Below, piece by piece: positions 9,426 to 18,664 of a DNA stretch of 53,368 bases. Every line of letters begins with the position of its first letter. Position 1 is the stretch's first letter. The notes beneath the pieces were generated by a model. The model did no database searches. It had not been told where the DNA came from and saw only the letters and a list, made by a program, of their open reading frames with translations. The position numbers were made by a program, and so were the translations under genes. This stretch comes from a virus (lineage: Duplodnaviria; Caudoviricetes): the IMG/VR virus record IMGVR_UViG_3300030388_000656, positions 1 to 53,368 of that record; one strand, written 5' to 3'.

Positions 9426-9711
9426 TCTGAAGTTTGTTAACCACCTCCTGAAAGTCTTGGTCAGATTCAATAAGTTCTTTTGCTTTTTTATATCCATGGA
9501 TGATTGTAGAATGAGTTGTTGTATGCCCATGCTCCTCCAAGAATCTTTGTATGTATGATATTCTGATTGGTCTTTCCATACATAAGTAGTATAGCATCTG
9601 TCTTGCATCTACAATATCCCTACGTTTAGTTTTAGTAAACATCTGGTCTAATGATAGATGAAATTGGTCTGCTATTGCTGATGCATATGCATCAAAAATG
9701 TCTTTTTTCAT
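9418..9711 (-). CDS. DnaA C-terminal (domain IV)-like HTH protein
   Basis: TKRRDIVDARQMLYYLC...HSTIIHG. Confidence 0.75.
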   Translation of the reverse strand: MKKDIFDAYASAIADQFHLSLDQMFTKTKRRDIVDARQMLYYLCMERPIRISYIQRFLEEHGHTTTHSTIIHGYKKAKELIESDQDFQEVVNKLQNV

Positions 9712-10842: not shown

Positions 10843-10895
10843 TATACTGACTACCTTTCGGTAGTTTCGGATACTGAATCCATCATCAGAGTATA
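10843..10895 (-). ncRNA. Type I hammerhead ribozyme HHR-1
   Basis: - strand RNA: UAUACU CUGAUGA U GGAU-UCAGU-AUCC GAA A CUACC-GAAA-GGUAG U C ^ AGUAUA. Full catalytic core, three perfectly paired stems, GUC cleavage triplet (cut between 10849 and 10848). Confidence 0.93.
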
Positions 10896-11430: not shown

Positions 11431-11462
11431 CAAAAGTATTAAATACTTAGCTTAAATCCAAA
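11431..11462 (-). promoter_or_regulatory. Bacteroidota consensus promoter
   Basis: - strand TTTG-N20-TACTTTTG, a perfect -33/-7 match. Confidence 0.75.
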
Positions 11463-11878: not shown

Positions 11879-11888
11879 ATCTATTTAT

Positions 11889-12020
11889 TTATTTGTACCA
11901 ACCATAGGTCGGTAGTTTCTTGCATTGTCTTGTACTACTGCAAGAGATTAATGATAACAGCACAACCAAACAATATGTGTATGCCATGAGTTTTAAAAAT
12001 ACCTTTGTTGAGTTTTTCAT
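11889..12020 (-). CDS. 43 aa putative lipoprotein (missing from the ORF track)
   Basis: MKNSTKVFLKLMAYTYCLVVLLSLISC-SSTRQCKKLPTYGWYK; lipobox LISC; fills the intergenic gap exactly. Confidence 0.6.
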   Translation of the reverse strand: MKNSTKVFLKLMAYTYCLVVLLSLISCSSTRQCKKLPTYGWYK

Positions 12021-12022
12021 AT

Positions 12023-12325
12023 CTAAAATGGAAGTTCGTTAAAGCTATTTTCTATCTGGTCTGAATACCTTTTGAATATTTCATTCCAGTCAATACACTT
12101 GATATCTTCATACTCAAATTGCTCGCTGTCTACCAGTGACATGAATTCCGTTAAAGGATTGTCAAAGTTAGACTTATTGTCCAGAATAACACATAGTCTG
12201 TAAGTCTGTACATTTTTGTAGCCATAGAACTTCTCTTCTATGTCGTTCTTTTCTTTGGTAAGGTTCTCTACCAGTTCTTTGTACTTATTGATGTCTTCAA
12301 TAAGGTTCTTTGCAGTTAAATCCAT
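12023..12325 (-). CDS. Hypothetical protein with N-terminal coiled coil and C-terminal ELPF
   Basis: 100 aa ORF. Confidence 0.65.
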   Translation of the reverse strand: MDLTAKNLIEDINKYKELVENLTKEKNDIEEKFYGYKNVQTYRLCVILDNKSNFDNPLTEFMSLVDSEQFEYEDIKCIDWNEIFKRYSDQIENSFNELPF

Positions 12326-12346
12326 AGATCTATTTATTTAGGTTTT

Positions 12347-12394
12347 GAGGAACATCCCTCTACCACGAAATCCCCACTAATTTCTTAGTGAGGC
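12347..12394 (-). ncRNA. Unrecognised two-hairpin structured motif, copy B1
   Basis: - strand G CCUCACUAA-GAAA-UUAGUGGGG AUUUCGUGGUA GAGGG-AUGU-UCCUC; covaries with the copy at 13390-13436. Confidence 0.6.
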
Positions 12395-12395
12395 A

Positions 12396-12435
12396 TGGGT
12401 ACGTTATCGTATCCTTCTGGGTACGTTATCGTATC
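12396..12435. repeat. 18 bp perfect direct repeat x2 (22 bp period)
   Basis: tgggtacgttatcgtatc at 12396-12413 and 12418-12435. Confidence 0.9.
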
Positions 12436-12659
12436 TATTTTACTGGTTTCCTTCCTACATGATTGAAAAGGATGTAAAGACTATCTGTCTTATGCTGGTA
12501 CTCATTGTAGGTCTTTTGCAACTCGTAGTCAATTCGTTCTCTCTCCATTAATTGTAGCGTTGAGAATTTATATGAACTACATGATTGTAGTAAAAATGAT
12601 ACAGCCAGAACTACAAATGCATATCGCATGTAGTAAGTGAAAATTGTTTTTAAACTCAT
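12435..12659 (-). CDS. Putative lipoprotein
   Basis: Hydrophobic signal ending LLQSC, followed by SS. Confidence 0.6.
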   Translation of the reverse strand: MSLKTIFTYYMRYAFVVLAVSFLLQSCSSYKFSTLQLMERERIDYELQKTYNEYQHKTDSLYILFNHVGRKPVK

Positions 12660-12660
12660 C

Positions 12661-13008
12661 TTAGTTGTTTGTATTAGTTATTATTGCTTGCTCTTCTTCT
12701 GTATACTCTTGGATGTCTACCAGTTTACCATCTATCTCTTCGTACTGGATATCTTCATCCTCTACCCAGTCTGTCCAGTAATAAATCTCATCGTTGTAAG
12801 CCCATTCCATTAATTCTTCATCAGTCATCTTGCTTGGGTACAGCTGGTTTCCATCTTCATCCTCTGCTGTAAAATCTTGACCTCTCAAGGTGTCAATTAA
12901 GTCCTTGTCATTTGCAATATACTCGTGGTCGTTGTACAGGTAACCTTCGTTCATACCCTCTCCAGTTATACCACATTGTCTTGCCCAAAAAATTCTTTCT
13001 TTACTCAT
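12661..13008 (-). CDS. Hypothetical acidic early protein
   Basis: Start moved to ATG 13008 (MSKERIFW) because the track start at 13080 lies inside HHR-2. Confidence 0.7.
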   Translation of the reverse strand: MSKERIFWARQCGITGEGMNEGYLYNDHEYIANDKDLIDTLRGQDFTAEDEDGNQLYPSKMTDEELMEWAYNDEIYYWTDWVEDEDIQYEEIDGKLVDIQEYTEEEQAIITNTNN

Positions 13009-13036
13009 CTTATTTGAATTAGTTTGTATCATTATT

Positions 13037-13089
13037 GATAGTGACTGCCAGCTGGCAGTTTCGGATATTAAATCCATCATCAGACTATC
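13037..13089 (-). ncRNA. Type I hammerhead ribozyme HHR-2
   Basis: - strand RNA: GAUAGU CUGAUGA U GGAU-UUAAU-AUCC GAA A CUGCC-AGCU-GGCAG U C ^ ACUAUC. Full core with compensatory changes relative to HHR-1; cut between 13043 and 13042. Confidence 0.93.
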
Positions 13090-13372
13090 TGCTTCCCTCC
13101 ATGCAGTCTTTAAACATTATCCAGTCAGATACTTTCATGTCTTCAAATATCACATGTCCAAGCACGCTTACTAACTCCTCTTTCATTGTAGTTTGTGCCA
13201 TGATTAATCTAAGTTTTGGATAGTAGATACCTCCCATTTCATATGAGATTTTCTCTTCATCTTCTGGAGTTAATGTGTCTTTGATTCTGATACAATTCAT
13301 CTCTCTCTGAATTAACTCATTTCTGAAATCGTGCTTTAACATCTGTACTTGGTTTAAAATCTTTGCGTTCAT
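13085..13372 (-). CDS. Hypothetical early protein
   Basis: 95 aa ORF; its TAG stop lies within stem I of HHR-2. Confidence 0.7.
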   Translation of the reverse strand: MNAKILNQVQMLKHDFRNELIQREMNCIRIKDTLTPEDEEKISYEMGGIYYPKLRLIMAQTTMKEELVSVLGHVIFEDMKVSDWIMFKDCMEGSR

Positions 13373-13389
13373 GTCTTTAATTTTAGTTT

Positions 13390-13436
13390 AGGAATAGTCC
13401 TGTACCACGAAATCCTCGCATATTTCTATGCAAGGC
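13390..13436 (-). ncRNA. Unrecognised two-hairpin structured motif, copy B2
   Basis: - strand G CCUUGCAUA-GAAA-UAUGCGAGG AUUUCGUGGUA C AGGA-CUAU-UCCU. Confidence 0.6.
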
Positions 13437-13455
13437 TTTCTCTGGAGAGGGGTTT

Positions 13456-13752
13456 CTACGATATTCTCGGCACAACAGCATCATCATCTGGGTTGTTTGC
13501 ACTTTCATATATACCTATGAAGTCATGCACTACATCCGTTAACCTGTGCTTACTGAGTCTATTCATTCCGTATTTTGTTACTTCCTCTACCCATTCTTGA
13601 TTGGTTTCTACTACTTGTTTGAGCATGTCTCTTACTGGCTTATTCTCTTGCTTAGAGATTTCTAACATCCAGTTCATAGGCATGAGAATATCTAATCTCA
13701 TTACTAATTCTTGTCTCTTTTGTTGTGCTAAAATTTGATTGGAAATATGCAT
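13456..13752 (-). CDS. Hypothetical early protein
   Basis: 98 aa ORF. Confidence 0.65.
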   Translation of the reverse strand: MHISNQILAQQKRQELVMRLDILMPMNWMLEISKQENKPVRDMLKQVVETNQEWVEEVTKYGMNRLSKHRLTDVVHDFIGIYESANNPDDDAVVPRIS

Positions 13753-14530: not shown

Positions 14531-14552
14531 TATACATCTAAAAAAATTTTAT

Positions 14553-14560
14553 TATCTTTG
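14553..14560 (+). promoter_or_regulatory. -7 box TATCTTTG
   Basis: Exact TAnnTTTG upstream of ATG 14597. Confidence 0.7.
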
Positions 14561-14596
14561 TCAAATAAACAGCAGTTAAAAATAAAAATATATATC

Positions 14597-15121: not shown

Positions 15122-16768
15122 ATGGAACAAGGATACATTCCTAAAGACCTCAGCTTTGATGATGAGGCAAGGAACAAATTGATAAGTGGGATTACTAAAA
15201 TCTCCAAAGCAGTTAAGAGTACGTTAGGGCCAAGAGGTCAAACTGTTTTAATAGAATCAACAGAACATTTACAGGGGTTAACTATTACAAAGGATGGAGT
15301 TACTGTCGCTAAGTCAGTACACCTTGATGATCCTATTGAGAACCTTGCAGTTCGTATGATGAAGCAAGCTTCTGAGAAGACTGCTAATGTTGCTGGAGAT
15401 GGAACTACTACAGCTATTGTATTGACTGAAGCTATTGTCCAGGCAGGAATGAAATGGATCAAGCCTTATCATAATGTAACTGACATTGTTAGATACATAA
15501 GAGAGGACTCTGATGTTATTATAGAGAACATTAGGAATAGATCATTAGAGGTTACTGATGATATGTTAAAAGACATTGCAGCTATATCAGCTAACAATGA
15601 TTATGAGTTAGGAGATATTATCTCTGAAGCATATCAACAAGTTGGTAAGGATGGGATAGTAACAGTTGAGAGATCTCAAACTGACAAGACATATTCAGAG
15701 GTTACTAATGGAATAAGAATAGATAGAGGTTATACTTCTCCTATGTTTATTAATGATCAAAGAAAAGATGAATGTATTATGGAAGGTGTTAAGGTTTTAA
15801 TCTGCGACACTGAGATTCATAACATACTTCAAATAGAGAATATACTTAAACCAATTATTAATGCAGGAGATAAACTTTTAATTATCGGAACTTGTGCTGG
15901 CAATGTTATAAATACATTAGCAGCAAATGTTCAACGTAATGGATTAAAGTTTTGTAACATCATGCCTCCTTCATTTGGATACAAGACTCATGAGTTAATG
16001 CAGGATATTGCATTTGCTACTGGAGCTAAATACTTTTCAGAAAAGACTGGAGATGATTTATCTATTATAACTATGGCAGACTTGGGTTATGCTGATAAGA
16101 TTATAGTAGGCAAGTCATCTACTGTTATTATAAAGCAAGGAGATATTAGTGATGAGACATCTTCAAGAGTAGCAGAGCTACGAGATCAACAAGAAAGACT
16201 TACAGCAAAACATGAGAAGGACTTTATCAATGAAAGGATTGCTTCTTTAGTTGGAGGGATAGGTTGTATATATGTTGGGGCTACATCTGATATAGAACAA
16301 AAAGAAAAATTTGACAGAGTCGATGACTCTGTCTGTGCAGTACGTTCAGCTCTACAAGAAGGAGTTGTTCCTGGTGGAGGATTATTGTTATATGATTTCT
16401 CAAGACACTTCGGTTGTAACTGTGAAGATGCAGTATCTGAAAAGATAGATGAAGACCAGGCAGCAGAAATGATTATGAGAGAAGCTTTGAAAGCTCCACT
16501 AAAACAAATCCTTGCTAATGCTGGGCTTGATGAAAAGGAAGTTATGTCAGAGATATATACTGATGCTATGTTAGGAACATTAGATGATGCTCCTGAAGTA
16601 CCAGAAAATAACAGAGGCTATGATGTGGTAGGTAAACAATACGGAGATATGTTTGAGATGGGTATTGTTGATCCAGCCAAAGTAACGAAAGAAGCTTTGC
16701 TTAATGCAATTAGTGTTGCAACAACTATACTAACTACTAACGCAATCATAACACATAAACGAGCATGA
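15122..16768 (+). CDS. groEL: Phage-encoded group I chaperonin GroEL
   Basis: AVKSTLGPRG, ITKDGVTVAK, AGDGTTTA, IDRGYTSP, ERIASL.GG, GVVPGGG, GIVDPAKV. Confidence 0.97.
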   Translation: MEQGYIPKDLSFDDEARNKLISGITKISKAVKSTLGPRGQTVLIESTEHLQGLTITKDGVTVAKSVHLDDPIENLAVRMMKQASEKTANVAGDGTTTAIVLTEAIVQAGMKWIKPYHNVTDIVRYIREDSDVIIENIRNRSLEVTDDMLKDIAAISANNDYELGDIISEAYQQVGKDGIVTVERSQTDKTYSEVTNGIRIDRGYTSPMFINDQRKDECIMEGVKVLICDTEIHNILQIENILKPIINAGDKLLIIGTCAGNVINTLAANVQRNGLKFCNIMPPSFGYKTHELMQDIAFATGAKYFSEKTGDDLSIITMADLGYADKIIVGKSSTVIIKQGDISDETSSRVAELRDQQERLTAKHEKDFINERIASLVGGIGCIYVGATSDIEQKEKFDRVDDSVCAVRSALQEGVVPGGGLLLYDFSRHFGCNCEDAVSEKIDEDQAAEMIMREALKAPLKQILANAGLDEKEVMSEIYTDAMLGTLDDAPEVPENNRGYDVVGKQYGDMFEMGIVDPAKVTKEALLNAISVATTILTTNAIITHKRA

Positions 16769-18414: not shown

Positions 18415-18428
18415 TAATAAATAATTAT

Positions 18429-18436
18429 TATCTTTG
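18429..18436 (+). promoter_or_regulatory. -7 box TATCTTTG
   Basis: Exact match upstream of 18458. Confidence 0.7.
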
Positions 18437-18457
18437 TAAAATAAATAAATATATCAA

Positions 18458-18664
18458 ATGAAAAATCAAGGTTACAATTCAAGACTCGATGAGTCATTAG
18501 CTGCAAAGAATGGGAAGAAGTCTCAATCTATGAAGTCTCGTAGAAACGAATCTAAAGCTATGTCATCAAAAGAGTACGGTCATGCATATGGTGGAGATCA
18601 CAATATGTCTTATGAGTGTATCAACAATGTTGGTAAGAAGATGACTGCTCGAATTAAAAAATAA
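18458..18664 (+). CDS. Small basic protein
   Basis: QGYNSRLDESL...RRNESK; TAATG-coupled to the next gene. Confidence 0.7.
   Translation: MKNQGYNSRLDESLAAKNGKKSQSMKSRRNESKAMSSKEYGHAYGGDHNMSYECINNVGKKMTARIKK

Follow-up and report, generated by a model that had tools for sequence, protein, structure and literature searches.

The two hairpin elements B1 and B2, found on the minus strand at positions 12347–12398 and 13390–13445 of a viral record (53,368 bases, completeness rating 88%; hereafter the window), are genuine members of one covarying RNA family. There is very little doubt that the motif is a genuine conserved RNA structure that is strand-specific and under selection. The element is one long irregular hairpin in which an outer helix, P1, encloses an inner helix, P2, across a U-rich internal loop. 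It lies between the small genes of an early phage operon, and at five orthologous junctions it can stand in for hammerhead ribozymes. Because the B element occupies the same intercistronic niche as the hammerheads and can replace them, we read it as mRNA punctuation, that is, an intercistronic processing signal which most likely depends on an RNase III-like protein, and we place the probability of this reading at roughly 0.4.

B1 (covariance model score 55.1 bits, E 1.7e-9) is, like B2, described here in the minus-strand sense. The 5′ strand of P1, CCAUG (12398–12394), pairs with the 3′ strand CGUGG (12367–12363), and enclosed between them is the P2 hairpin (12393–12372), a stem of 9 base pairs (bp), CCUCACUAA/UUAGUGGGG, capped by a GAAA loop (12384–12381). 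The base of P2, CCUCA/UGGGG, is of the conserved type and has a U.G wobble as its third pair. P2 is followed by AUUU (12371–12368), the 3′ strand of P1 and the invariant UA (12362–12361), together the 11-mer AUUUCGUGGUA (12371–12361), and then by an optional hairpin, P3, with the sequence GAGGG-AUGU-UCCUC (12360–12347). The ATG of the 100-aa open reading frame (ORF) served by B1 (12323–12325) is 35 nt past the UA. B2 (39.6 bits, E 4.3e-6) has a P2 hairpin at 13435–13414, again a 9-bp stem, CCUUGCAUA/UAUGCGAGG, with a GAAA loop (13426–13423), and belongs to a subtype with the base CCUUG/CGAGG in which the U.G is the fourth pair; the same subtype is found in loci L170 and L181. In the minimum free energy (MFE) fold, the lower helix of B2 pairs CCA..GAAA (13445–13443 and 13440–13437) with UUUC.UGG (13412–13405). 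The 11-mer is found at 13413–13403, ending in the UA at 13404–13403, and is followed by an optional P3, AGGA-CUAU-UCCU (13401–13390), and by the ATG of a 95-aa ORF (13370–13372), 30 nt past the UA. The first-pass annotation of this DNA had described 9-bp GAAA-capped stems that differ in sequence and keep their pairing, each with one G-U pair that works only on the minus strand, and both observations were borne out on that strand.

The 11-mer occurs exactly twice in the window, at B1 and B2, and a repeat search of the window paired two 50-nt stretches around the elements at 74% identity. This likeness is far beyond chance; the same architecture recurs in all 28 of the 28 related viral records that were searched whole, and covaries. 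Folding z-scores for B1 and B2 were −2.0 and −3.8 on the minus strand, and −1.5 and −1.5 on the plus strand, which folds worse because the U.G pairs become C.A there. An 18-nt direct repeat, GAUACGAUAACGUACCCA, is found in two copies 4 nt apart directly upstream of B1 (12395–12436, minus strand), and its second copy provides the 5′ strand of the B1 outer helix. At position 13398, one contig (depth about 6) from the marine DNA run X8 has T>C on the plus strand; this changes AGGA to AGGG in the P3 hairpin of B2, converting an A-U pair to G.U and keeping the pair.

The annotation had divided each element into two hairpins joined by an invariant linker, and this anatomy did not hold, as most of the "linker" is the 3′ strand of P1. 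The linker is indeed identical between B1 and B2, but its middle, CGUGG, has 12 versions among the 51 distinct copies of the family and pairs just upstream of P2. The pairs seen in P1 include CCACG/CGUGG, CCUAG/CUAGG, CCACC/GGUGG, CCCAA/UUGGG, ACACG/CGUGU, CCUAC/GUAGG and CUACC/GGUGG, in addition to the CCAUG/CGUGG of B1. A perfect 5-bp partner was found 0–8 nt upstream of P2 in 30 of the 51 distinct copies, compared with 6.7 ± 2.2 when partners were permuted (maximum 16 in 2000 permutations) and 11 in the reversed-strand control. The second hairpin, also part of the annotated anatomy, is present in both B1 and B2 but proved dispensable in the family, with P3 found in 24 of 54 distinct copies and absent from 30.

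Covariation in homologues, which had been proposed as a check, was looked for and found in both helices. The covariation score was 0.384 compared with 0.153 in shuffled alignments (0 of 500 shuffles reached 0.384), and partners slid out of register gave at most 0.083. Paired cells made up 85.1% of the alignment and 70.7% in shuffles, though the alignment was fitted to the covariance model and so favours the structure. P2 was 98.5% paired, with double-sided changes at five of its nine pairs, and P1 was only 62.4% paired in one fixed register, as 0 to 7 nt of spacer can precede P2. The state of the UUU between P2 and P1 also differs between copies: it is bulged in B1 and in most copies lies opposite between one and three U, and B2, L057, L085 and L087 pair it with AAA or AGA. 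What the copies have in common is therefore a rod of about 18–20 stacked positions, made up of the 9 bp of P2, one closing position (purine–W), a 3-nt U region and 5–7 bp of P1, and MFE folding produced the P1 plus P2 rod in most of 55 copies. A K-turn was considered and dropped, as no tandem G.A was seen by eye after the bulge. In many members (e.g. L061:10560–10660 and L104:10440–10560) the upstream stop codon is followed by a T/G-rich tract resembling TAATTTGTTTTGTTT, with complementarity to the A/C-rich leader in front of the following ATG. Only some folds join the two in a further outer helix, which would mask the start region, and this long-range helix was therefore dropped as a feature of the family.

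A DNA-level role for the motif is very improbable. The annotation had listed a hairpin-type single-strand promoter, and the alternative form is a repeated boundary at which early gene cassettes are shuffled, for which the promoter–stem-loop cassettes of T4-type phages are an analogue. Copies of the motif do flank small, variable ORFs, the gene content between copies differs among relatives, and assemblies often break at the motif (L057, L107 and L169). However, both the U.G pairs and G.U-containing versions of P1 such as CUACC/GGUGG pair on the sense strand only, a single genome can hold several versions of P1, the copies are always oriented like the genes, and the variable 3′ strand of P1 rules out a fixed −10-like box. 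No RNA polymerase family was found in the 10 window ORFs scanned with PHROGs, and the promoter proposal, including an N4-type promoter for a virion RNA polymerase, was given up on this result and on the sense-strand wobble pairs.

Sequence conservation among the 51 distinct cores was concentrated at the base of P2 and in the bases that flank P1, though part of it is ascertainment because two of the search patterns fixed CCTCA, TGGGG and GGTA. A purine before P2 and an unpaired UA after P1 were found in all 51 cores, and UUUU or AUUU (W-UUU) follows P2 in 47 of them. The conserved type of P2 base is CCUC/GGGG with a U.G wobble; CCUCA was found in 35 of the 51 cores, and in the variants the pairing is maintained, with a U.G wobble as the third or fourth pair. 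P1 is free in sequence, and the P2 loops are unconserved (4–8 nt, unrelated sequences). The same pattern of conservation was seen in the 18 distinct copies that the covariance model found in loci fetched by their GroEL gene (see below).

Some of these conserved parts, a G+C-rich stem base with UUUU or AUUU directly after it and a free stem top and loop, are also what an intrinsic terminator needs, and a leaky terminator or attenuator in which P2 and the U tract grade transcription of the early operon, perhaps overridden by an antitermination factor, was weighed. Several copies do lie in series within that operon, and at least five U are found among the 8 nt that follow P2 in 31 of 51 copies (three U in 2 copies, four in 18, five in 29 and six in 2). 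P1 nevertheless covaries even though its 3′ strand lies past the U tract and would be absent from the terminated RNA, and the invariant UA places a further constraint on sequence past that tract. B1 and B2 were not called by a terminator scan, and clear terminators of this phage (40060–40090 and 14840–14881) have about nine to ten U. A gene follows within about 33 nt, leaving no room for a promoter, and the element is replaceable by a hammerhead, which does not terminate. Termination is an unlikely explanation.

Members of the family were collected in several ways. The first scan of viral contigs, with the loop plus 11-mer pattern GAAA-N9-ATTTCGTGGTA, returned 99 stretches, of which only five (L057, L061, L085, L087 and L094) had a complementary stem, the rest being chance matches; one of these contigs contained two more copies with another "linker", UUUUCUAGGUA. 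A second pattern, with two linker positions left free, was found in 29 stretches of viral contigs. These gave 29 distinct foreign matches by script and, by eye, all but L127 had complementary arms and an ATG 20–40 nt downstream. A covariance model (R1) built from 25 copies matched 63 times in 31 sources, and 39 of these matches are distinct. When 79 loci were fetched via the phage GroEL, independently of the motif, 34 more model matches were found in 16 of them. These represent the 18 distinct copies mentioned above, all of them, like B1 and B2 in the window, on the opposite strand to groEL, and include the B2 subtype CCUUG/CGAGG and other variants of the stem base. Five phage records that are 98–100% complete each contain three copies within 1.3–1.9 kb and none elsewhere. 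In total the family comprises 51 distinct core sequences from uncultivated marine phage contigs, where counts of "distinct" copies still include close relatives. Three matches were dropped before positions, conservation and P1 partners were counted, namely the antisense of a true copy (L125:5675–5717, minus strand), a copy cut by the contig end (L169:1–38, minus strand) and one with a poor stem (L127:12304–12351, minus strand, 19.8 bits).

A blastn search of GenBank phages with one family member gave no match. In the closest GenBank phage, MW202828, whose primase shares 62.9% amino acid identity with that of the window, no copy was found in 27 kb including the early region (best score 8.5 bits, filters off). 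The motif was not found in a strict-pattern scan of 185,579 species genomes. Two stretches from Pelagimonas metagenome-assembled genomes, at the same place in both and inside a 759-aa ORF, were set aside as chance matches. A divergent copy (34.7 bits) was found in L094, from record G025 which is labelled as a giant-virus bin, at 9557–9602 on the minus strand; unlike almost all other copies, it has no ORF of at least 40 aa within 200 nt downstream on the same strand.

The early operon of the window runs on the minus strand from about 14,030 to about 1,260, beginning with small ORFs and continuing into replication genes for a primase/helicase, a helicase, an exonuclease and a Sak-type annealing protein. 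Relatives of the primase found by tblastn belong to phages that infect Flavobacterium, Nonlabens, Polaribacter, Cellulophaga and Maribacter, and the DNA runs that contain the window stretch are marine. Throughout the family, copies sit near the start of the early operon, within its first few kb, where small ORFs are separated by a B element or a type-I hammerhead, and they are always on the sense strand of the genes. For 52 of the 54 distinct copies, an ORF of at least 40 aa begins downstream in the same orientation, with a median gap of 33 nt (range 5–122 nt, where the lower extreme is an ATG inside P3 and the upper a copy directly followed by a hammerhead). In the 40 copies with a callable upstream ORF, the upstream stop codon is 0–34 nt before P1 (median 14.5 nt). 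On the other side of the operon, the window encodes a GroEL-like chaperonin (15122–16768 and neighbours, plus strand), relatives also have a Cpn10 homologue, and 80 related viral loci share the phage GroEL at 47–85% identity. Promoter-like sites of the form TTG-N(17–23)-TAnnTTTG, a form read as that of Bacteroidota promoters, are found at 14539–14588 (plus strand), 18415–18464 (plus strand) and 11431–11461 (minus strand), the first of them where the early operon and the GroEL side diverge.

Consistent placement 19–42 nt before start codons, together with conserved sequence inside helices and a U-rich bulge between them, is typical of protein sites, and the clade has many conserved small proteins without known function. 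A non-cutting site for a sequence-specific regulatory protein, whether a translational operator of the gene that follows or a TAR- or boxB-like loading site for an elongation or antitermination factor, or else a structural insulator or stability hairpin, could account for these features, but we consider it doubtful. The spacing between element and ATG varies, in some copies with a hairpin in between, the P2 loops are unconserved, unlike those of boxB or TAR, and three copies lie in series in one operon rather than one per promoter. Replacement by a hammerhead is also hard to explain without cleavage.

The annotation had placed the B elements in the same context as ribozymes, and this was upheld: they share strand and operon with hammerheads in 11 loci. 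Hammerheads were called by our own script (core plus three stems) and by eye, not with a curated model. In the window, a type-I hammerhead lies between B2 and B1 (13037–13089, minus strand) and has, in order, CUGAUGA, stem II, GAAA, stem III, GUC and stem I. A second is found upstream of a 200-aa ORF (10844–10894, minus strand) whose orthologue in L201 is preceded by a B element. In both window hammerheads one extra U separates the CUGAUGA core from stem II. A stretch at 11888–11919 (minus strand), at the end of a 43-aa ORF and immediately ahead of the ATG that follows, looks like the 3′ half of a hammerhead (GAAAC plus stem III) with no CUGAUGA upstream, and may be a hammerhead relic. The script found 17 hammerheads in the 11 B-bearing loci, on the same strand as the B elements throughout. 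Among 43 GroEL loci with at least 5 kb of early flank, 10 had both elements, one had only B, 14 had only hammerheads and 18 had neither (Fisher p = 0.012, though the real support for co-occurrence is weaker than this value because several of the loci are near-identical).

Five gene families have a B element upstream in some phages and a hammerhead in others. The gene starting MKILELFSG... is preceded by B in L106, L115 and L116 and by a hammerhead in L201, the same locus that has a hammerhead before the MNKIE.KWT... gene (B in L115 and L116) and the MGTRSLTHF... gene (B in L117). For the MPNHV... gene, the 200-aa ORF of the window, B is found in L201 and a hammerhead in the window, L168 and L198, and for the ...CYELSKNNVL... 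gene B is found in L105 and a hammerhead in L061, L103 and L109. The leader up to the ATG is alike after either element (19–37 nt after B, 18–32 nt after a hammerhead). Two of seven "mixed" gene clusters were set aside, as cluster 0 contained dissimilar proteins and cluster 51 consisted of paralogues within one phage. In L103 (1301–1438, plus strand) no gap separates a B copy from the hammerhead after it, whose stem III contains a long insertion; L061 and L109 have a small ORF between B and hammerhead which is missing in L103.

Such interchange at five orthologous junctions, in phages that bear hammerheads, would also be expected of a new class of small self-cleaving ribozyme in which the P1/U-loop/P2 rod, alone or as two docking copies, does the job of the hammerhead. 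The rod has about 19 near-invariant positions, including the U.G wobble and the unpaired UA, and gave no match to a known class (Rfam and the hatchet, pistol and twister-sister models). Guilt by association with ribozymes is what led to twister-sister, pistol and hatchet. Yet the fold has no multi-helix junction and no conserved pseudoknot, its P2 loops vary freely between 4 and 8 nt, and its conserved unpaired bases are only U, U, U, U, A and one purine. The geometry of the internal loop is unfixed, with the UUU bulged, facing U or Watson–Crick paired, and the third hairpin is missing from more than half of the copies. Self-cleavage by the rod is unlikely.

Of the possible functions that the annotation listed, a processing element is the best supported, given that the motif takes the place of hammerheads before orthologous genes. 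In the mechanism we propose, B1 and B2 would act in cis as RNA copies on the early polycistronic mRNA of a marine phage clade with relatives infecting Flavobacteriia. A protein would cut in or beside the U-rich loop or the UA, the likeliest enzyme being a host double-strand-specific endonuclease (RNase III-like) and the alternative a phage factor. The upstream cistron would then end in a protective hairpin and the downstream cistron start with a short A-rich leader of about 20–35 nt, like a hammerhead-cut leader. Cleavage by a protein is favoured because the element is a plain rod with a weak U-rich middle of unfixed geometry and free loops, and because T7-type RNase III sites are the obvious analogue; G-G/W-U-U also recalls the preference of RNase E/G.

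Several points weigh against this processing signal. That cleavage occurs, where it occurs and by which enzyme is what we infer. None of the sequencing runs found to contain the stretch was of RNA, and among reads taken from two RNA runs and two DNA runs the RNA yielded a single contig of 166 nt, which lies within an ORF and shows no RNA ends. The main weakness is that about 19 near-fixed positions suit a sequence-specific protein or a catalytic core better than RNase III, which is not known to require a specific sequence. The helix is short for RNase III where P1 is weak (three or four of five pairs in 21 of 51 copies by the 5-mer test), the copy at L115:810 folds without P1, and P2 plus UUUU resembles a weak intrinsic terminator. 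A Pfam search of 10 clade-wide proteins, taken from clustered ORFs of B-bearing loci, found no nuclease or RNA-binding family.

A 2019 review (PMC6765202) judged that the purpose of self-cleaving ribozymes between phage genes needs further work. Replacement of a hammerhead before the same genes in sister phages by a second, unrelated RNA element is a natural swap experiment. The need of the phage lies in whatever is common to both, for which a defined 5′ end, a hairpin at the 3′ end and an insulated start region are candidates. A B element that cleaves itself would represent a new ribozyme class, one of unusually simple fold. Were a host enzyme to do the cutting, no intercistronic processing signal would have been described earlier for phages of Bacteroidota, and designers of operons would gain a compact part for Flavobacteriia, where initiation is not led by Shine-Dalgarno sequences. 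The boldest formulation, a new and very small class of self-cleaving RNA or a dedicated nuclease-recruiting signal that marine Flavobacteriia phages use interchangeably with hammerheads for cutting early polycistronic mRNA into single-gene messages, is one to which we assign a low probability. In these phages, annotation based on Rfam overlooks both the B motif and plain type-I hammerheads.

The annotation could not match the element to the hammerhead, twister, pistol, hatchet or HDV consensus, and comparison with known RNA families likewise gave no match. A cmscan search with Rfam 15 (4227 models), at gathering score and at E ≤ 10, gave no match at B1 or B2, using either the whole window or 12300–13500, and none at the three copies in L061 (8700–10700), though its sensitivity for short motifs is poor because the same searches missed hammerheads read by eye. 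These were both window hammerheads and a textbook example at L061:9558–9609, and the hammerhead model RF00163 reached only 25.9 bits, on a single hammerhead of a relative. Hatchet, pistol and twister-sister are small RNAs found beside hammerheads in phage-like contexts. In five records (G000, G001, G003, G009 and G019) that hold 14 R1 matches at E ≤ 0.01, the pistol (RF02679) and twister-sister (RF02681) models had no matches at E ≤ 10, and hatchet (RF02678) had two weak ones (12.1 and 10 bits) away from the B sites, so these models give nothing at the B sites.

RAGATH motifs were reportedly defined by Weinberg in 2015. The operational feature of such motifs, recurrence beside known self-cleaving ribozymes, is also seen here, as hammerheads are found in 10 of 11 B-positive and 14 of 32 B-negative loci. 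According to a published account (PMC13085918), Rfam includes RAGATH-6 (RF02686) and RAGATH-18 (RF03064). Judged from sequence comparison, in which these two Rfam-held families represent the RAGATH set, the motif appears to be uncatalogued. A literature search, with the published RAGATH set beyond Rfam outside its reach, found no description of it.

Several other known elements were considered. The antitermination RNAs of lambda nut and HK022 put do not fit, as the loops differ in length and sequence and three copies, each following a gene, are strung together over about 2 kb. A CRISPR-repeat mimic was rejected as no motif-bearing arrays were found in the strict-pattern scan of species genomes, a Bacteroidota sigma-A promoter as there is no TAnnTTTG in the element, and an extracytoplasmic function (ECF)-type −10 box as the 3′ strand of P1 is variable. 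Intrinsic terminators share with B a G+C-rich stem base followed by 3–4 U, but B has a covarying outer helix across the U tract, the UA beyond it, a short U run and a gene immediately after.

The type-I hammerheads of phage and prophage operons share with B the operons, strand and intercistronic position and a similar distance to the ATG. For prophage genes flanked by several hammerheads, Perreault et al. 2011 (PMC3088659) proposed a role in processing long phage transcripts. B differs from them as a single rod-like hairpin for which self-cleavage is hypothetical; the B sequences contain no CUGANGA ... GAAA core and no three-helix junction, only two stacked helices.

In phage T7, host RNase III separates the cistrons of the early mRNA by cutting irregular hairpins that contain an internal loop, and the leaders of lambda likewise have RNase III processing hairpins. 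The B elements belong to phages of another host phylum, have no sequence relationship to the T7 and lambda sites and are far more conserved in sequence than RNase III is known to require. Like those sites, they are irregular intercistronic hairpins of about two turns with an internal loop, several to an early operon, and they would similarly leave a 3′ hairpin on the upstream message. The form typical of an RNase III-type hairpin, an irregular stem of about two turns often with an internal loop at the cut, is the form of the B rods.

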